DNA from: a virus
Length of the DNA stretch: 64,000 bases
Virus record (IMG/VR): IMGVR_UViG_3300029950_000012
Direction: 5' to 3' (one strand)
Made by a program: the position numbers and the translations under genes. The notes below the pieces were generated by a model. It worked only from the letters and a program-made list of their open reading frames with translations. It ran no database searches and had not been told where the DNA came from. Positions 2,836 through 44,813 of the stretch are shown here, in pieces (positions within the stretch are counted from its first letter, which is position 1; every line of letters begins with the position of its first letter).

Positions 2836-4393
2836 CTTCTGCGCCTTCCAACACTTCCCCACCAGAAGGCAGGATCATTTGATTAGTTAACATGTCCGTA
2901 ATAGCGTCTACTGTAGGATCAATTTGGTCATCATGCTTGTGGGACATAAGCGGCGAGAACTTACGAAACTCGGCCTTATACTCAAATATCCACTCTGCAT
3001 TAAGAGGTATCCAGACGTTCCCTATGTTGATCTGAGGGACGGCTCCGTATGCTCTTGTAACCTTATCCTTAAATCGTGTGATAGCGCCTATGGGTAACTG
3101 GGTACTGTTCTTGATGTTCTGAATCAATGATGTACCAGAGGACTTCTCCTCCACCAGCACATCAGTTACCGCTATACCTCTAACATTAGCAAACCCTACG
3201 ATCTTATTCCAGAAATCAACTAATGTACTTTCTAACTCAGGTGCCTCTACTTTACCACGAAACTGGTCGAGTAGGAATATACCAAGAGTCGGGGAGTAAC
3301 CCCAAGCCTGGAACACTGTGTAATCGTTCTCCTCACCCGTTTTCTCTGCGGTGTCACAATATACCCGTATGAAGGATAGATCACTTGGCAGTACGTTCCA
3401 TAGCTTCCAGAACTGGTCTTTAAAAATGGCACCACCCTTTGGCGATGGTGATTGATGATACTGGGAGGCAGTTGTGTAAGGATCTGCTTTGTCCATCTGA
3501 TCTAGATCAGCTTGAGTGTGTTTAAAGGGCCACAATGGCCCCTCATTCAAGTCATACGGAATAGGGATGCCATGGGTGTACTCTTTTGGGTACCAGTCTT
3601 CTATACGGCCTTTAGGGATAGGCGATGGTAAAAACAAATGGTGCCACATCTCCCCGGTTCCACCCTGTAGTAAAAAGCCGGTTGGGTCGTCCTCGTGGAT
3701 ACGCTGCATGATTAATATCATGGGCGTGTGACTCTTCCTGGCAAGGCGTGAATGGAAGGTGTTCATAAAACGTTGGTTGATTTTATTACGAACCGTTTCC
3801 GAAAAAGCATCGTCCGGTTTTATCGCATCATCAATTATGAAGGCACCCTGAAACCCATCCTTAAACTTTCCGGCACGAAACCCAGTGATAGGCCCACCGG
3901 ATGCTGTTGCATAAACTCCACCACCATGCTCTGTGTACCATTTCTTTTTGGCGTTCGAGTCCATCCTAATGCGGGCCTCAAACATCATTTGGAATTCTGG
4001 TGTTTCAACAATGTCCTTAGTCTTCTGAGAATTTTCTAGTGCAAGTTCATCCGAGTAAGTGGTGTGAATAAACTTAGCACCTGGATTAATCGCTAGGCCA
4101 CGAGACATGAAAAAGATTACTGCAAGTTCTGTCTTAGTGTAGCCAGGAGGTACGTTTATTATTAGTCGTGTAATCTCACCCTTGATCACCCTGTCTAGCG
4201 TTTCAGCCATTAGGATGTGATGGGGAGATACTTGAAACTCCATCGCGTCTCTTACATTAAAAAAATACCTAGCATAGGCTAGGTTGTCAGTAAGTAGATG
4301 GTGCCGGAGCATTCGGATTTCGTTGGGCGTCCATATGACATCCCCGTCGTCCGTAATGTCAGACTGTTGATCTGGTGTCCATATAGCGCCCAT
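2777..4393 (-). CDS. terL: terminase large subunit
   Basis: 538 aa. Walker A-like PPGYTKTE, Walker B FQGAFIIDDA, coupling motif MQRIHEDD, linker SQYHQSPSP, and nuclease Asp motif VYCDTAEKTGEENDYTVF. Confidence 0.9.
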   Translation of the reverse strand: MGAIWTPDQQSDITDDGDVIWTPNEIRMLRHHLLTDNLAYARYFFNVRDAMEFQVSPHHILMAETLDRVIKGEITRLIINVPPGYTKTELAVIFFMSRGLAINPGAKFIHTTYSDELALENSQKTKDIVETPEFQMMFEARIRMDSNAKKKWYTEHGGGVYATASGGPITGFRAGKFKDGFQGAFIIDDAIKPDDAFSETVRNKINQRFMNTFHSRLARKSHTPMILIMQRIHEDDPTGFLLQGGTGEMWHHLFLPSPIPKGRIEDWYPKEYTHGIPIPYDLNEGPLWPFKHTQADLDQMDKADPYTTASQYHQSPSPKGGAIFKDQFWKLWNVLPSDLSFIRVYCDTAEKTGEENDYTVFQAWGYSPTLGIFLLDQFRGKVEAPELESTLVDFWNKIVGFANVRGIAVTDVLVEEKSSGTSLIQNIKNSTQLPIGAITRFKDKVTRAYGAVPQINIGNVWIPLNAEWIFEYKAEFRKFSPLMSHKHDDQIDPTVDAITDMLTNQMILPSGGEVLEGAEDDENDNNDYADRGTALISG

Positions 4394-5349: not shown

Positions 5350-5882
5350 TAGTATCTCGAATCAAATTTCTTTTGAAACAGTCGCACTTCTTTACTTGTC
5401 AGCGGCTGCACTTTTTGTACTGTTAATTCCCCACTCACCTGCACATTGCGTTTCTTCGAGTGAACATATTCCGCGATCTGTTTCGCTGCGGCTTGTGACT
5501 CTTGTAATGTTACCGGGGCTTCCTCATACTCATTTTCGATCATATACACCAAATCCTCCCAATAATGAGAGTGAGATGGGGGTGCGTCGTCCTGGTAATG
5601 GTCTTGTATCAATTTCAGGTGCGTATAAATGTTCGAATTCCGGCGCGGGTCGCGTCCTGACATGATCGTTGCAAGAAACTCTAATGGCATGGGGGTGCCG
5701 GTCTCCTCACACATATCAAACACTTTCTTCTCTACATCGTCCATCGCTTCTCTATCCACACTCTGTATGGAACTATCAAGCGCGGCGTCAGCGGACGCGG
5801 GGGCTGTAGCCTTTCTGCGTCTTCGCTTTTTGGGCTTCTCCGGTTCTTCTTTAATTGTCTTCTTACGTCGTCTGATTGCCAT
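5349..5882 (-). CDS. terminase small subunit candidate (position-based)
   Basis: 177 aa and first gene of the minus-strand packaging string. Strongly basic N-terminus (RRRKKTIKEEPEKPKKRRRRK). No family motif recognised. Confidence 0.45.
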   Translation of the reverse strand: MAIRRRKKTIKEEPEKPKKRRRRKATAPASADAALDSSIQSVDREAMDDVEKKVFDMCEETGTPMPLEFLATIMSGRDPRRNSNIYTHLKLIQDHYQDDAPPSHSHYWEDLVYMIENEYEEAPVTLQESQAAAKQIAEYVHSKKRNVQVSGELTVQKVQPLTSKEVRLFQKKFDSRY

Positions 5883-12332: not shown

Positions 12333-13253
12333 ATGGCTAAGAAATCATTTGTTAAAAAAGATGTTTACCAAGAAGTTACCAACAAGATCATTGCGAAACT
12401 CGAAGCTGGAACCGTTCCATGGGTTAAAGAGTGGGACAACCAAGGCAACAATCTTTCAAAACCCCTACCTTACAATTTCGACTCCGGCAACATGTACAGT
12501 GGAATGAATATTTTATCATTGTGGATGAGTGAGGAAGAGAACCAATTTACTTCCAATGCCTGGATGACATTCGCACAAGCCAAGAAGAAAGGCGGCAACA
12601 TAATCAAAGGGCAAAAGGGAACGTCTCTATTCTTTTTTAAGTTTGTCGAGAAGGTTTGCGCGGACACTGGGACAGATAAGTCCTACGCAATGCCTAAGCC
12701 CTTCACAGTGTTTAACCTAGACCAGATTGAAGGTATCGAGTTGCCAACGTGTGAGGAGCAACCACAGCCCCATAATGGGCCAATTAATACTGGCGTGTTA
12801 CTCTCTTACATGATCGATCAAGGCATTAAGCTAACAGACGGCAAAAACACTGCTTACTACTCCCCAACTGTTGACCGCATAGGAATGCCACCCCGCGAAC
12901 AGTTCCACAGCGAGAGCGCCTATTTTGGGACTCTGGCGCATGAATGCATACACTCGACTGGACACAAGAAGCGTCTAGACCGATTCAGCAACATAACCGA
13001 CATACTTGACACCGTACCAAGCCCTAAGAAAGAATATGCATTTGAGGAATTGATTGCAGAACTAGGCGCGGCTTTCCTTTGTGCTGAAACCGGAATACAA
13101 AAAGACAATGAACAGACAGCCGCATATATTGGCCACTGGTTAAAGTGTCTTAAGTCCGATAAGAAGTTTATTGCACAAGCCGCAAGCCGTGCATCAAAGG
13201 CGACTAAGTATATAAACGAAGCCGCAGAAATTAAACTAGAAAAGGCCGCATAA
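12333..13253 (+). CDS. ardC: ArdC-like antirestriction protein (ssDNA-binding N-domain + zincin metalloprotease)
   Basis: 306 aa. The N-terminal VPW...PYN..SG..YSG.N.L pattern matches ArdC-N/DUF1738. The C-terminal HECIHSTGH...RLDR is an HExxH zincin as in ArdC. Confidence 0.8.
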   Translation: MAKKSFVKKDVYQEVTNKIIAKLEAGTVPWVKEWDNQGNNLSKPLPYNFDSGNMYSGMNILSLWMSEEENQFTSNAWMTFAQAKKKGGNIIKGQKGTSLFFFKFVEKVCADTGTDKSYAMPKPFTVFNLDQIEGIELPTCEEQPQPHNGPINTGVLLSYMIDQGIKLTDGKNTAYYSPTVDRIGMPPREQFHSESAYFGTLAHECIHSTGHKKRLDRFSNITDILDTVPSPKKEYAFEELIAELGAAFLCAETGIQKDNEQTAAYIGHWLKCLKSDKKFIAQAASRASKATKYINEAAEIKLEKAA

Positions 13254-23631: not shown

Positions 23632-24219
23632 ATGGATTTTGCAATCGTACCTAAAGGCCAAAAGTTTGATTTCTCTCTTGTATCTAAGCAGACTACATTA
23701 GCTAAGCTATATGTTGGTGCTGGTTGGGACATGGCCCAAGAAGGCGCTGATGTTGATTTGGATTTGGTAGCTGTTCTGTTGACTGATGGCAAAGTAACAA
23801 ATAAAGACCATCTGATTTACTTCTCTAATCGTGTTAAGTCTCAGTCTCTTGGTGTGTTTCTCTCTGAAGACAATGTTACAGGCGAAGGTGATGGGGATGA
23901 TGAGTCTATCGTAATTGACTTTGCTAACTTACCTACCGGCGTTAACGGTATCGCTCTTGGATTAATTTGTTACACTGGCGGCATTACCTTGCCGGAAACT
24001 GTTAACACTCACCTACGTATTTGTGATGGCGATAATGAGCAGAGTGAACAGGTAGCGGATGTTGAAATCGAAGGCGCAACTGCGGGCTCTACTGTAGTAC
24101 ATGGCATGACCGTTTCAATGAACGCTGAAGGTCATTGGATAGTAGAGAATGTTGATACTTTCCATAATTGCGGAAATGGTATCGGCGCTGTACAAGGATT
24201 CGGTCAGCTATTTACTTGA
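23632..24219 (+). CDS. terD: TerD-domain stress protein
   Basis: 195 aa. GAGWD...DLDLVAVLL...SEDNVTGEGDGDDESIVIDF contains the Ca-binding GDN.TGEGDGDDE signature of TerD/TerZ/TerE proteins. Confidence 0.85.
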   Translation: MDFAIVPKGQKFDFSLVSKQTTLAKLYVGAGWDMAQEGADVDLDLVAVLLTDGKVTNKDHLIYFSNRVKSQSLGVFLSEDNVTGEGDGDDESIVIDFANLPTGVNGIALGLICYTGGITLPETVNTHLRICDGDNEQSEQVADVEIEGATAGSTVVHGMTVSMNAEGHWIVENVDTFHNCGNGIGAVQGFGQLFT

Positions 24220-24417: not shown

Positions 24418-25272
24418 ATGTTAGAATTAATATTTATTATCTTTGTTGCAATAATGATTACCATCGAATGGGCGTACCATCGTGAACACCCAAGTACTTT
24501 TAACTCTGCTTTAGCTTTTACCGGCGCATACATTGGCGCGGCTTTCATTTTCTCTGGTGTCGTTGCAGGGCTAAGAGGGCATGAAGCTGCTGGTATGTTC
24601 TTAATGGGCTATACGCTTGAAAAAATGCTGGCGTTCGATAACCTATTCGTATTCAGTATTATACTAACCTACTTTAAAATAGGCGCGTTAGAGAAACACA
24701 AAGCCCTACACTATGGCATTATTGGCGCTGCTGTTTTCCGTCTAATCTTCACTGTGATAGGTGTTGAGTTCATGGAGTACTTCGGCCCCACATTCGACTT
24801 AGTGTTTGCTGCAATGATTCTGTACTCGGTTTATCTAATGATGAGTGCGAGTGATGAAGACGACGCAACGAACTATGATGAATTGTGGTGGGTCATTAAT
24901 ATCAGAAAAGTATTCCCGACCATTTCTATATTCTGGCTTGTAGTAATCATTATAGAGATAAGCGACGTGTTGTTTGCCTTTGATAGTGTACCCGCCGTAA
25001 TCGCCGTCACTAAAGACCCCGCACTGATTTACTTTGCAATGATGTTTGCTATATTAGGGCTACGCCAAATGTACTTTGTAATAGACGCCATGAAAAATTA
25101 CATGCGCTACATTGATACGGCTATATATTGTATCTTGGTTTTCATCGCGATTAAGCTAGTCGCAAGTGGTTTGTTTGCCTTCCATATGAATGAGTTGTAT
25201 AGCTTAGCGATTGTTGCTACTATACTACTTATTGGGGCTACTGCTTCACTGGCAAACCCAAAAGAAAGTTAA
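24418..25272 (+). CDS. terC: TerC/Alx-family integral membrane protein
   Basis: 284 aa and multi-pass. YTLEKMLAFDNLFVF and the repeat SDVLFAFDSVPAV match the duplicated E..LS.DN.FVF core of the TerC family. Confidence 0.85.
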   Translation: MLELIFIIFVAIMITIEWAYHREHPSTFNSALAFTGAYIGAAFIFSGVVAGLRGHEAAGMFLMGYTLEKMLAFDNLFVFSIILTYFKIGALEKHKALHYGIIGAAVFRLIFTVIGVEFMEYFGPTFDLVFAAMILYSVYLMMSASDEDDATNYDELWWVINIRKVFPTISIFWLVVIIIEISDVLFAFDSVPAVIAVTKDPALIYFAMMFAILGLRQMYFVIDAMKNYMRYIDTAIYCILVFIAIKLVASGLFAFHMNELYSLAIVATILLIGATASLANPKES

Positions 25273-32601: not shown

Positions 32602-32604
32602 GCA

Positions 32605-32633
32605 TTGCTTTATCTAAAATAGTGTATTACTAT
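32605..32633 (+). promoter_or_regulatory. sigma70-like promoter at the head of the ORF-free structured locus
   Basis: TTGCTT-17 nt-TACTAT read directly, immediately after the stop at 32601. Confidence 0.5.
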
Positions 32634-32763
32634 TGTTGAACTTGCTAAGGGAACCCCAAGCTCCCTTAGCACTATAACCGAAACCCTTCTCTATGTTGAA
32701 GATGCTCGATACGTCTTTTCATTAGAGTCATAGAGAAGGTGAGTAGGCCAAGTGTTTATTTGG

Positions 32764-32831
32764 AAGGGGTTAGCTCAATGGTAGAGCCCTGGCCAAGGTC
32801 AAAGACGGGGGTTCAATTCCCTTACCCTTTC
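32764..32831 (+). tRNA. tRNA-like element 1 (tRNA-Gly(GCC)-related sequence, non-canonical anticodon arm)
   Basis: Acceptor AAGGGGT/ACCCTTT with a G.U at the third pair. D arm GCTC-AATGGTA-GAGC. T arm GGGGG-TTCAATT-CCCTT. Only 19 nt lie between the D and T stems (CCT-GGCCA-AGG), so there is no 5-bp stem with 7-nt loop. About 68 nt long, with no encoded CCA in register. Confidence 0.45.
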
Positions 32832-32951
32832 CAAATAAGCATTTTAACTCAACCAATGTAAGTTGGTATATTAGGGCATGTCATCTGACACCTAACCGAG
32901 TAAAACGACTAGGGGTATCCCCAGTCAAATAAATTAAAAGTGTTCATTCAG

Positions 32952-33022
32952 ATGGGGTATAGCGACAACGGTAGAGCACCTTAGTACAAGGCGGATGGAG
33001 GGTTCGACTCCCCAGCCCTATC
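32952..33022 (+). tRNA. tRNA-like element 2 (non-canonical D, anticodon and T stems)
   Basis: Acceptor ATGGGGT/GCCCTAT with a G.U at the third pair. D region AGCGACAACGGTAGAGC. Anticodon-position hairpin CCTT-AGTAC-AAGG. T loop TTCGACT closed by only 3 clean pairs. Confidence 0.4.
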
Positions 33023-33138
33023 TGAATGAGCATTTAAAAGAATTTCCTGTATAGTACTAGTGTAACGACTGGGAGGGCGCGGGACGCAATGTAGCATCGG
33101 GGTTGACTGACGTTCTGCCTGCTACACTTTTGATTGAC

Positions 33139-33174
33139 TATTCTCTCAGACCTAGCGCTAGGTCTGAGAGAATA
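33139..33174. repeat. 36-nt perfect palindrome
   Basis: TATTCTCTCAGACCTAGC|GCTAGGTCTGAGAGAATA read directly (18-nt arms, no spacer). Confidence 0.9.
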
Positions 33175-33294
33175 TGTGAGGGCTGTTACCCTTGCGGTCA
33201 ATTACGAGTAAGGACGATAAGAATTAAAAGTTTTACCAGTAGACTTAAATTAAATTTTAGCGTCTGCAATCGTAGTTTACTGGTAGATTAAATA

Positions 33295-33343
33295 TGGATG
33301 GTTAGAGTTGGTAGCTCTTAGGTTCGATTCCTAAAACCATCCA
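33295..33343 (+). ncRNA. tRNA-like element 3: acceptor + D-like hairpin + T arm, no anticodon arm
   Basis: TGGATGGTT pairs with AACCATCCA (9 bp). D-like hairpin GAG-TTGGTAG-CTC. Perfect T arm TTAGG-TTCGATT-CCTAA. Only about 49 nt, with nothing between the D-like and T arms. Confidence 0.5.
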
Positions 33344-33779
33344 CCGAATAGGAGTCCTTCGCCTCAATCGGCTTAGGGAAATATACTGTAGTAACCAGCG
33401 CTTCGGGCGGGTTGCCATAGGGCTAGTTGGAAATCTAAGCAGCTCCACCGAATAGAACAAGTGGCAGTCAATTGACTTTATAATCGAAAATTGGGGAAAG
33501 CTGCACACTTGTTCTTCCTATCCTCTGAGGGGTGGACGCAAGCACCTAGACCGGCGTTCGGAAGCGGCCTAGTAGTAAAGGGTACAGTAAAAGCCTTGTA
33601 CTTCCGATAGCAAATAAGAGGTTAGGTGAATCGTTTACGTCAGGTTGCGAGAACCCTTATAAAGTGAGTGCATTCAATCACTCCAACCGTATTTCTTAAT
33701 GGGCCGGTATTAACTGGAATAGGCGCTAGTTAATTCCTATAAAGAGAGTAGCTAACCTTACTACTCCGGCCCCACCTAT

Positions 33780-33838
33780 AAGAGGAAGGTACGTGGATTG
33801 TCAAACGCCATGCGCCATGTATTGACCTCCTCTTTTTA
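33780..33838 (+). terminator. long interrupted helix followed by a U-run (possible 3' end of the structured RNA)
   Basis: AAGAGGAAGGT+ACGTGG pairs with CCATGT+ACCTCCTCTT (16 pairs, one bulge, one 4-nt internal loop), then TTTTT at 33833-33837. Confidence 0.4.
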
Positions 33839-33903
33839 CTGTGTGACTCTCCTCCCGAAAGCCGTCTCTTTTAGCGTTGATGGTGAGTAGGGACTTTTTT
33901 CTC

Positions 33904-33932
33904 TTTACTTCCTTAAAAGACTGTAGTACTAT
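33904..33932 (+). promoter_or_regulatory. sigma70-like promoter for the replication operon
   Basis: TTTACT-17 nt-TACTAT read directly, 40 nt upstream of the 33972 start. Confidence 0.55.
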
Positions 33933-33971
33933 AAAACCTCAATTTTGTAAAATATTTTTTGAGGCACTTTT

Positions 33972-35240
33972 ATGGCACATAGTAGAATAGGGCCAAGTGC
34001 TGCTAAGCGATGGATGAATTGCACAGGCAGCATAGACCTTATACAATTCCTTAGATCACAAGAAAAAATACCCCTGAAGAGTCCTACAAACAAGGCTTCG
34101 GAACTGGGTACCGCTGTCCACTATGTGGGTGAGCAAGTCCTACTAAAAACACGTCGCGTTAACCAGTTTAAAAATATTCCTGTTAAAGTTGATGAGATGA
34201 AGTTTCCTGTGTTGCTGTCCCAAAAGAATTTGGATGATGCACAGGCTTACGTAAGCTTCTGTAGGAAAGCAAAGGAGCAGCACCCTGGTAAGATGGTAGT
34301 CGAAGAGACTTACGACCTTAGTAAGGTGTATGACGCCCCAATAGGCGGCACGACTGACTGTAGTATCGTTGGCAGAGTGCTACAAGTAATTGATTATAAG
34401 AATGGAGCCTTTCCTGTTTACGCAGAGGGCAACCCACAAATTATGATCTATGGCTTAGGTGCCTATTATAAATATAGAAAGGTGAAAAAGATTCGCAAAA
34501 TTCGCCTTGTTATATTCCAACCAAACGCCCGTGATAAACATGGCCCCGTTCGTGAACACACAATGCACCTTCATGAATTATTGAAGTGGGAAAAAGAGGA
34601 ATTAATCCCTGCACTAGAAACTATCAAAAGTGGTAAAGGTGTGCTAATACCTTCCCGCGAAAACTGCATGTTCTGTGAAGCTAAAGGGTTTTGTAAGGCT
34701 CTTAAAGAACAGAAACCAAAACTTGTCAAGGATATGATTGTAAGTTCTTCGCTTATACCAATGCTTGATTCAGGTAGTTTGCCAAACCCAGAAGAGTTAA
34801 ACGAAAAAGAATTGATAAGTGTTTTACAAAACGCCGATCATGTAATAGAATTTTACACAGCTTGTAAGAAACTTGCCAAATCGAAACTTGAAACCAACAA
34901 GACTGCCTTACCTGGCTTCGGACTAAGACCAAACCTTGGGAACCGTAGTTACCGATCTGACAAGATTCTTACAAGCACCCTAGAGGAGTACGACGTATCC
35001 TTAAGGAGTATAAAGGTAGCAGCCAGCGAACGCTTCATGACTGTTCCCGAATTAGAGTCGTATGTAAGTACTACACTAGAATGGGATAAGGATGATGTTG
35101 AAGAGTTCATGGATAAAGTTACTACAAGAAAGGTATCTAGCCACGCGCTAGTCCCTGTCTCTGAGGCAGCAAATGATTTTGCCGAAGCGATGAAATCTAA
35201 TCCGAAAATCAGAAAACGACGTAAAAAGGTAATAAGTTAA
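33972..35240 (+). CDS. PD-(D/E)XK exonuclease, DUF2800/Cas4-like
   Basis: 422 aa. N-terminal GPSAAKRWMNCTGS, core GGTTDCSIV...VIDYKNG, and C-terminal Cys cluster CMFCEAKGFC. Confidence 0.75.
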   Translation: MAHSRIGPSAAKRWMNCTGSIDLIQFLRSQEKIPLKSPTNKASELGTAVHYVGEQVLLKTRRVNQFKNIPVKVDEMKFPVLLSQKNLDDAQAYVSFCRKAKEQHPGKMVVEETYDLSKVYDAPIGGTTDCSIVGRVLQVIDYKNGAFPVYAEGNPQIMIYGLGAYYKYRKVKKIRKIRLVIFQPNARDKHGPVREHTMHLHELLKWEKEELIPALETIKSGKGVLIPSRENCMFCEAKGFCKALKEQKPKLVKDMIVSSSLIPMLDSGSLPNPEELNEKELISVLQNADHVIEFYTACKKLAKSKLETNKTALPGFGLRPNLGNRSYRSDKILTSTLEEYDVSLRSIKVAASERFMTVPELESYVSTTLEWDKDDVEEFMDKVTTRKVSSHALVPVSEAANDFAEAMKSNPKIRKRRKKVIS

Positions 35241-44435: not shown

Positions 44436-44813
44436 CTATTGCACTCCAATGTAATGCGCGGCGGGTATAAGTGTTATTGCAAGACAAAGGAAAGTTAATG
44501 TACCACTGATCACAAAGTAAATTCGCTTAGGCATCTTCCATCCCCTATACTCCCAACCTTTAAACCAACCCTTCTTAGTTCCCCACTTATCACACGCTAC
44601 ACAATAAGTAAAGTCCATGAAAGGCGTTCGTAACGTTCGCAAATTCATACAGTCTAAACGTGTTCGGGGCTCCTCCATTAGTGGGATGTAAACACCCACC
44701 CCATTATCCTTATTCTCCTCTGCAACTTCCCTGTCATCCTCCCTGCTTTTACACAGCAGGGGTTTTGAGTTGCGTTTGATCATAGCCTTAATTTCTTCTT
44801 CGTGATTTTTCAT
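44436..44813 (-). CDS. tail-anchored membrane protein (125 aa)
   Basis: Single C-terminal TM span IYFVISGTLTFLCLAITLIPAA. Cys/Trp-rich middle part. Confidence 0.45.
   Translation of the reverse strand: MKNHEEEIKAMIKRNSKPLLCKSREDDREVAEENKDNGVGVYIPLMEEPRTRLDCMNLRTLRTPFMDFTYCVACDKWGTKKGWFKGWEYRGWKMPKRIYFVISGTLTFLCLAITLIPAAHYIGVQ

Follow-up and report, generated by a model that had tools for sequence, protein, structure and literature searches.

The locus and its setting

The stretch analysed here (the window, 64,000 nucleotides; IMG/VR virus record IMGVR_UViG_3300029950_000012) is part of a 74-kb siphovirus-like phage contig from a marine metagenome (ENA ERZ23496371, scaffold_68), which bears the bin label 'Thalassobium sp.' at NCBI. 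On its plus strand lies a 1370-nt locus (32602–33971) free of open reading frames (ORFs), and within it we have found two RNA modules of a common design, each composed of a long uninterrupted helix, which we call the stalk, bearing a tRNA-like head. Protein scans of the window's ORFs identified structural genes (portal, terminase, capsid, tape-measure and tail) and a replication module with genes for a primase/DUF5906 protein, a DUF2800 PD-(D/E)XK exonuclease, an Enc34-type single-stranded DNA-binding protein (SSB), a family A DNA polymerase and an SNF2 helicase. The locus is flanked on one side by an acidic ORF of 218 residues, downstream of the primase, and on the other by the DUF2800 exonuclease gene. 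The scans covered the larger ORFs of the window, 34 of them distinct; 30, including all neighbours of the locus, were compared with Pfam and four from the tail region with PHROGs only.

Gene callers placed no gene at all between 32602 and 33971, and the interval is predicted to be densely folded. Local inverted repeats of 17 nt or more number only 12 in the 64-kb window, and three of the top five lie inside these 1.37 kb. Gene calling, folding and the comparison with six related contigs together define the locus as a large modular structured RNA containing a tRNA-like island.

Two stalked tRNA-like modules

Stalked module 1 extends from 32750 to 32844 and stalked module 2 from 32938 to 33035, both on the plus strand. 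In each, the 7-bp acceptor stem of the head continues directly into a 14-bp extension, and the inverted-repeat search and the minimum free energy (MFE) folds agree on mismatch-free helices of 21 bp, 32750–70/32824–44 and 32938–58/33015–35. The extension of stalk 1 is formed by AAGTGTTTATTTGG (32750–32763) on the 5′ side and CCAAATAAGCATTT (32831–32844) on the 3′ side, whose pairing is supported by covariation. The modules fold at − 40.8 and − 40.4 kcal/mol (z = − 5.4 and − 5.5), values equalled by none of 200 shuffled sequences. Besides the repeats and the folds, both are recognised by a covariance model built here (R1), and module 2 has in addition an orthologue in a related phage (L009, below).

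Head 1 (32764–32831) derives from a tRNA and keeps the acceptor, D arm and T arm of the cloverleaf intact; the Rfam tRNA model (RF00005) accepts it at 44.9 bits. Head 2 (32952–33022) is a more degenerate tRNA-like cloverleaf. The acceptor strands are AAGGGGT (32764–70) and ACCCTTT (32824–30) in head 1 and ATGGGGT (32952–58) and GCCCTAT (33015–21) in head 2, and in both the third pair, equivalent to 3:70 of tRNA, is G.U (G32766.U32828 and G32954.U33019). The D regions share GGTAGAGC as a direct repeat at 32780–87 and 32970–77, and the T loops are GGTTCAATTCC and GGTTCGACTCC; the T arm of head 2 is GGGTTCGACTCCC. Head 2 is irregular: 3 nt connect its acceptor to the D region, the D stem has only 2 bp and the T stem contains two mismatches. 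It is paralogous to head 1, with which it shares the stalk, the CAAYGGTAGAGC block and the T arm.

Neither head has the 5-bp stem and 7-nt loop of a canonical anticodon arm. In head 1 the MFE fold and the alignment to the Rfam tRNA model give a 4-bp stem, UGGC/GUCA, in register with positions 27–31/39–43 and closed by a 4-nt loop, CAAG; a CCU/AGG stem with the loop GGCCA is an alternative, and in either fold the region is 3 nt short. In head 2 the anticodon position is occupied by a CCUU/AAGG stem with a 5-nt loop. Heads 1 and 2 are paralogous tRNA-derived RNA domains that cannot decode.

A reading of the sequence made beforehand without database searches, the sequence-only reading, had described most of these features. 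Direct reading bears out its statements on the two acceptors, the GGTAGAGC D region, the TTC(A/G)A T loop, the flanking extension and the G.U third pair, and the 15-bp helices that it reported are present as part of the longer, 21-bp ones. Of the short hairpins that it placed in the anticodon position, that of head 2 stands as written and so does the loss of about 3 nt from head 1, for which the proposed 3-bp stem and 5-nt loop are only an alternative to the 4-bp, 4-nt fold.

The pair directly below the acceptor, stalk pair 14 (32763:32831 and 32951:33022), is G-C in all five stalked modules known to us (see below) and formally corresponds to G-1:C73, the identity element of bacterial tRNA-His. 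It sits alongside the alanine-like G3.U70 and is probably a by-product of the continuous helix. Between the two modules (32846–32937) there are three small hairpins that fold well (z = − 3.7), the last of which (32906–32927) resembles a terminator on the minus strand.

Related phages

All true relatives came from ENA and Logan contigs, to which homologues of the exonuclease led. Neither blastn nor megablast produced a match in the GenBank phage collection. IMG/VR, searched by DNA patterns and by exonuclease protein or profile, returned chance matches only, as did JGI metagenomes and GTDB genomes. A non-coding locus occupies the same position in six further genotypes: L003–L008, which are mutually identical there and are counted as one (390 nt), L009 and L010 (~ 790 nt each) and L027, L028 and L029 (720–925 nt). 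The order of primase-side ORF, RNA and DUF2800 exonuclease is kept throughout this small clade of marine siphovirus-like phages; in more distant contigs (L011, L012, L030 and L100–L102) the RNA is absent and ORFs are found at that position instead.

Stalked modules were located by blastn and R1 in three of the related genotypes. L009 contains at 2663–2760 the orthologue of module 2, with 86% identity; L003 has at 5689–5788 the stalk of module 1 under a different head, designated X; and L010 has at 3311–3405 a stalked module with yet another head, Z. The comparative set therefore consists of five stalked modules from four phage genotypes, all of them metagenomic assemblies. Folded individually, each of the five gives a ~ 21-bp stalk topped by a four-way junction that includes a T-arm-like hairpin, and in four of them the anticodon position holds a stubby hairpin of 4–5 bp with a loop of 3–5 nt. 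In head X this last hairpin is longer and the D stem is absent.

The stalk as a plus-strand RNA structure

The 84 pair cells of the four full-length stalks all hold standard pairs, 16 of them G.U or U.G, with no A.C or other mismatch, and over the alignment of all five modules 98% of stalk cells are paired, five stalk pairs having changed on both sides. The covariation score is 0.296 against a shuffled mean of 0.148 and was reached by none of 500 shuffles. When the partner strand was slid by 1–3 columns as a control, pairing fell to 40–65%. All six stalk differences between module 2 and its L009 orthologue are compensatory. Three wobbles are invariant in the five modules, those at stalk pairs 3 (G.U), 6 (U.G) and 17 (G.U, the acceptor pair 3:70). 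The length is constant at 21 bp, about two helical turns, in four of the five modules, and the base of the stalk (AAGUGUU/AGCAUUU) and the A-rich linkers that flank it are nearly invariant.

The same modules are far less convincing when read from the other strand. R1 scores them at 87–121 bits on the plus strand and 16–33 bits on the minus strand, the values being 93 and 29 bits for module 1 and 109 and 28.5 bits for module 2. The minus-strand folds, at − 28 kcal/mol (z = − 2.1 to − 2.4), are worse than the plus-strand folds by 12 kcal/mol.

These observations bear on the possibility that the modules have no RNA function, being either decaying tRNA pseudogenes or DNA-level elements, in which the flanking inverted repeats would be recombination sites, the termini of a small mobile cassette or a portion of an origin inside the replication module. 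The position of the locus, between the primase gene and those of the exonuclease, SSB and family A polymerase, with a perfect 36-nt palindrome inside it, would suit an element of the latter kind, and the drift of the D arms would suit decay. Against this, the 16 irregularities of the helices, which fall at six independent positions, are all G.U and never A.C, the stalk changes between orthologues are compensatory throughout, and both model score and folding energy are strongly asymmetric between the strands. Irregularities confined to G.U together with the strand asymmetry point to a structure of the plus-strand RNA rather than to a DNA hairpin, terminal inverted repeats or an origin structure. 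Decay is also opposed by the recurrence of the shortened anticodon hairpin in unrelated head types. We regard an explanation without RNA function as distinctly unlikely, and the comparisons indicate that the stalks are real and selected and that the feature acts at the RNA level, on the plus strand. The sequence-only reading had argued from two copies that a shared blueprint speaks against random decay, and this is strengthened by the three relatives: their modules repeat the extension, the acceptor G.U and the short hairpin of the anticodon position, with compensatory changes, and the extension and G.U pair are conserved, as that reading had proposed to check.

Formal tRNA models and the origin of head 1

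ARAGORN reported neither tRNA nor transfer-messenger RNA (tmRNA) in the 64-kb window. Head 1 exceeds the Rfam tRNA gathering score of 29, with its 4-nt loop where 7 nt belong. Head 2 gave no match to the tRNA model, even when a stretch of 116 nt was searched at E = 10, and the heads of L009, L010 and L003 gave none in searches of 116–131 nt at the same E value. The sole Rfam match of head 2 is to the tmRNA 3′ end (8.2 bits, gathering score 47), covering the T arm and 3′ acceptor strand. Nor do the modules have the free discriminator, 3′ CCA and unpaired leader of a canonical tRNA, the acceptor running into 14 more pairs. The acceptor strand is followed by CCA in module 1, CTG in module 2 and CCC in L009, so that CCA is not conserved. 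An ordinary tRNA or tmRNA can therefore be rejected for both elements, ARAGORN being negative and only head 1, with its shortened loop, passing the Rfam tRNA model. The question raised by the sequence-only reading, whether tRNA finders would fold the elements as ordinary tRNAs, is answered in the negative by both programs. Its description of element 2 as tRNA-like holds by eye and by paralogy with element 1, while every formal tRNA model fails to recognise it.

Among annotated phage sequences the closest to head 1 is the tRNA-Pseudo-CCA/Trp of a Rhizobium phage, with 79% identity over 55 nt, which aligns with an anticodon region ~ 3 nt longer than that of head 1. R1 matches it over the head only (positions 20–90 of 112, 20.8 bits). 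This gene, at 44477–44547 of Rhizobium phage B1VFA (MT770738.1; L223 1494–1564), is annotated as tRNA-OTHER / tRNA-Pseudo-CCA and stands at the end of a cluster of Met and Asn tRNAs; it is also present in sister phages, in one of which the annotation is tRNA-Trp. The residual loop of head 1 holds both GCC and CCA, and its derivation from a Gly-GCC tRNA, which the sequence-only reading took to be clear, could not be confirmed, the best annotated relative being this Trp/CCA pseudo-tRNA. That phage tRNA clusters often hold pseudo-tRNAs, and that the nearest relative of head 1 is annotated as one, is an argument for the pseudogene alternative considered above.

Exchange of the stalked module

The 145 nt upstream of the stalked module show 99% identity between L009 and L010 and ~ 70 nt downstream show 100%, yet the whole module between is swapped, with breakpoints at the base of the stalk and with stalks that differ by compensated changes. 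Since two nearly identical phages from different samples bear unrelated heads on compensated variants of the stalk, the cassette has been replaced recently. Head X provides a second case: in L003 it is stalked, and in L028 it lacks the stalk and has CCA directly behind it. The stalk plus head is thus a discrete unit that is exchanged wholesale between related phages. The tRNA-Pro just downstream of the L009 and L010 modules also differs at several paired positions.

Breakpoints at inverted repeats resemble recombination at conserved flanks, and this would suit a DNA-level element. R1, however, found the stalked module nowhere else in 171 kb of window and related loci, which is not the behaviour of a dispersed mobile element, and we have rejected that candidate. 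The unit is exchangeable and yet confined to the locus.

The surrounding RNA

The modules lie in the variable part of a larger RNA whose motifs and covarying hairpins are shared with the six relatives, in agreement with the suggestion of the sequence-only reading that the elements are modules of such an RNA. Its hallmark is a hairpin, Hc (33232–33287, plus strand), in which 8 of 11 stem pairs have undergone compensatory double changes among six sequences and the loop AGCGUCUGCAAU is conserved; the loop consensus AGCRUCUGYRWU is found in all seven genotypes on a stem whose sequence changes completely, and in every case Hc adjoins a tRNA or tRNA-like element. Two further plus-strand elements are common to the window and L027–L029. 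The 5′ core block (32678–32747) consists of CCGAAA, a helix with GCTCGATAC and GAGTAGG, and in the comparison with L027–L029 the order CCGAAAGC, helix with GCUCGAUAC, GNAAGUAGG is kept and the pairs covary. The core hairpin (33457–33515) has the conserved loop AUCGAAAAUUGGGGAAA, with the consensus AUCGRAAAUUGGGGAAA.

Non-decoding tRNA-like elements are present in all seven genotypes. Besides the stalked modules, the window has on the plus strand a mini tRNA-like element, 'Y' (33296–33345), with an acceptor, a D-like hairpin and a T arm, no anticodon arm, and an end reading ...UCC-ACC; with the tRNA-Sec model it reaches no more than 18.8 bits. Its acceptor is of 8–9 bp and its T arm, TAGGTTCGATTCCTA, is good, and it has counterparts at about 2914–3001 of L009 and 3557–3655 of L010, both ending in GTCCACC. 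The tRNA-like elements of the sister clade (L027 521–616, L028 1016–1114 and L029 531–605) have free ends, reading ...ACCA, and are directly followed by Hc. In place of the normal anticodon loop they have 16–31 nt, the inserts being of 27–31 nt in L027 and L028, and one is called by ARAGORN as 'tRNA-???' with a 4-nt anticodon. These too are non-decoding, in a format unlike that of the stalked modules. A canonical tRNA-Pro or tRNA-Val stands beside the tRNA-like elements in L009, L010 and L028, and the point of the core at which the whole island is inserted varies from clade to clade. The locus has no Rfam match in any of the genotypes, and it appears to represent a previously uncatalogued family of large modular phage RNAs.

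The palindrome mentioned above, TATTCTCTCAGACCTAGC|GCTAGGTCTGAGAGAATA (33139–33174), is the only inverted repeat of such size in the window with 100% complementarity and could be a very stable RNA hairpin or a protein-binding site in the DNA. A 12-mer, TCCACCGAATAG, occurs twice, at 33340–33351 and 33444–33455, 104 nt apart, and each copy ends a structured module. The second copy reads GCTCCACC and resembles the 3′ end of tRNA-Ala or tmRNA; the module between the copies folds no better than shuffled sequence (z = − 0.7). Two candidate contacts were rejected. Kissing-loop dimerisation through the palindromic loops of heads 1 (GGCC) and 2 (GUAC) is not conserved, the corresponding loops being GUAU in L009 and GACG in L010, and the long-range pairing of the stalk-1 3′ strand with 33577–84 receives no support from the relatives.

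Comparison with known RNAs

Mimicry of tRNA within larger RNAs is known from tmRNA, Y RNAs, mascRNA and the tRNA-like structures of plant viruses, and tRNAs are linked to GOLLD. Of the large RNAs, GOLLD (RF01998) and ROOL resemble our locus in kind, being large structured RNAs of phages and prophages tied to tRNA islands, and the GOLLD linker sometimes carries tRNAs. In the present locus tRNAs and tRNA-like elements lie in the variable part. The embedded elements are mostly non-decoding and in this clade are carried on a conserved stalk, with which GOLLD has not been described. Neither family's model matched the window locus, L009 or L027–L029, whether the gathering score or E = 10 was the limit; the core motifs are different as well, and membership is rejected.

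The tRNA-like domain of tmRNA shares with the modules the G3.U70 acceptor, the T arm and the absence of an anticodon arm. It differs in having free ends with CCA, in that the remainder of the molecule leaves from the anticodon side, and in the tag reading frame; the modules are stalked at the acceptor. The ARAGORN and Rfam results given above dispose of tmRNA membership. The pseudo-tRNA ('tRNA-OTHER') of the Rhizobium phage resembles head 1 in sequence and lies in a tRNA cluster.

A parallel in architecture is mascRNA of MALAT1, with its NEAT1 counterpart, which is likewise a tRNA-like cloverleaf inside a long non-coding RNA. Its anticodon arm is reduced and has no decoding role. As in the modules, pairing of leader with trailer extends the acceptor stem of the embedded element, but in mascRNA the added helix is short, and RNase P depends on a bulged A at − 1 (PMC8457004). 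The modules have a bulge-free 14-bp extension with invariant wobbles, and − 1 is paired (G-1:C73) in all five. mascRNA is moreover eukaryotic; RNase P and RNase Z cut it out, and CCA is added to it.

The Y RNAs of bacteria and phages (YrlA, RF02553; Yrn1) also combine a long terminal stem with a tRNA mimic whose anticodon loop is off-size or absent, and tRNA enzymes read their tRNA-like part (PMC4201824). By analogy the stalk might be a tether for a Ro60/Rsr-type or similar ring protein while the head recruits a second factor, and the tRNA-like domain of Deinococcus radiodurans Yrn1 is indeed oriented as here (PMC4201824). YrlA, however, is circularly permuted: its acceptor is closed, its stem leaves from the anticodon side and it lies beside Ro60. 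The modules have the reverse topology, with the stalk on the acceptor side, and are internal domains, in a tandem pair, of a much larger RNA. The Rfam YrlA model, run down to E = 10, gave no match in any of the scanned regions of the window or of the L009, L010 and L003 modules, and its only match (23.7 bits) falls by chance across two neighbouring tRNAs of L028. Inspection by eye did not show the GNCGAA(N)G motif, and no TROVE/Ro60 gene occurs among the 30 window ORFs scanned against Pfam. Membership of the Y RNA family is rejected on these grounds, and a role as a Y RNA-like tether seems to us very improbable.

A literature search found no description, for phage RNA, of a conserved bulge-free stalk bearing interchangeable anticodon-less tRNA-like heads. 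The locus adds a compact case, open to comparative analysis, in which a conserved helical mount, varied non-decoding heads and whole-unit exchange occur together.

What the modules may do

We tentatively favour, while giving it somewhat less than an even chance, the reading that the heads stay tethered to the RNA and display the half of a tRNA made up of acceptor, T arm and elbow on a rod of fixed length, either as mimic domains or as docking modules. The heads are probably not matured to free tRNAs, because the helix is unbroken through − 1/+ 1 and 73/74, CCA is not conserved and there is no 7-nt anticodon loop. Tethered heads would present the 'top half' of a tRNA, that is, the acceptor/T-arm stack and the D/T elbow, and as tRNA-shape mimics they might bind or sponge a host or phage factor that reads this half. 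Alternatively, they may be docking and folding modules of the large RNA. The invariant wobbles and the near-invariant stalk base would be the recognition surface of the stalk. Two roles proposed in the sequence-only reading do not go well with the structure. An alanyl-tRNA synthetase handle based on G3.U70 receives no support from a continuous helix that offers no free 3′ end, from a discriminator that is C and not A or from the lack of a conserved CCA. Having no anticodon loop, the heads are unlikely decoys for anticodon nucleases. They might act as decoys or sponges for factors that recognise the acceptor, T arm or elbow.

Several points weigh against tethered display. That the heads stay attached is something that we infer, and the RNase P argument from the bulge at − 1 stems from eukaryotic enzymes (PMC8457004). 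The D arm is poorly conserved between orthologues, element 2 having lost D-stem pairing and L009 having lost GG; this drift weakens the case for an intact elbow as a functional surface. With only five modules from four genotypes in existence, part of the conservation reflects shared descent. Neither Ro60, RtcB, an RNA ligase nor a CCA-adding enzyme was found among the 34 distinct window ORFs scanned. Finally, the near-invariant stalk base would suit a cleavage site as well as a binding site.

The last point leads to the main rival reading, in which the modules would be processing cassettes, the stalk being cut by host RNase III or a phage nuclease, perhaps with RNase P, exonuclease trimming and CCA addition, to free tRNA-like RNAs of ~ 70–95 nt. 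The stalk, about two turns long and constant at 21 bp in four of five modules, stacks on the 5-bp T stem to give ~ 26 bp, and thus provides the ~ 20 bp or more of continuous double-stranded RNA that typifies RNase III stems; its near-invariant base and A-rich linkers are what a recognition or cleavage site would be expected to have. Release of the heads is plausible because versions in free format exist, head X with CCA in L028 and the ACCA-ended elements of L027–L029, and the canonical tRNAs of the same islands must in any case be processed. Charging is conceivable, G3.U70 being alanine-like and G-1:C73 histidine-like, and cleavage could punctuate the long transcript. On the other hand, neither CCA nor the discriminator is conserved after the acceptor strand, + 1 is A and − 1 a paired G, which makes a poor context for RNase P, and the bulge at − 1 needed for efficient processing of extended-stem substrates is absent (PMC8457004). 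A cut by RNase III inside the stalk would in addition leave a paired extension on the product. On balance we find this explanation rather doubtful, though worth serious consideration.

A bolder form of the tethered reading would make the stalk a universal 'socket' on a giant phage RNA scaffold, into which anticodon-less, tRNA-shaped heads fit and between phages are exchanged under diversifying selection, so that a varying set of tRNA mimics would sponge or mislead host factors that read the half of tRNA made up of acceptor, T arm and elbow. Its targets could include tRNA-directed immune effectors and toxins, RNase P, CCA-adding enzymes and modification enzymes. We think this unlikely as it stands; were it true, the locus would serve anti-defence or host takeover by means of RNA, a device for which no precedent has been described in phages. 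If the heads are tethered mimics, as we favour, they would show how phages use the shape of tRNA without translation, and the ~ 95-nt module or the full 1.3-kb RNA would be a suitable construct for structural and pull-down work, which could help to explain why large phage RNAs and tRNAs are associated. If the stalks are processing sites, they would represent a new maturation route for tRNA-like RNA in phages.

Other features of the window

Upstream of the replication module are genes for an ArdC-like anti-restriction protein with a zincin peptidase domain (12333–13253) and for homologues of TerD (23632–24219) and TerC (24418–25272). The longest local inverted repeat of the window, 24 nt with 88% complementarity (34860–34883 / 34953–34976), lies within the coding sequence of the DUF2800 exonuclease.

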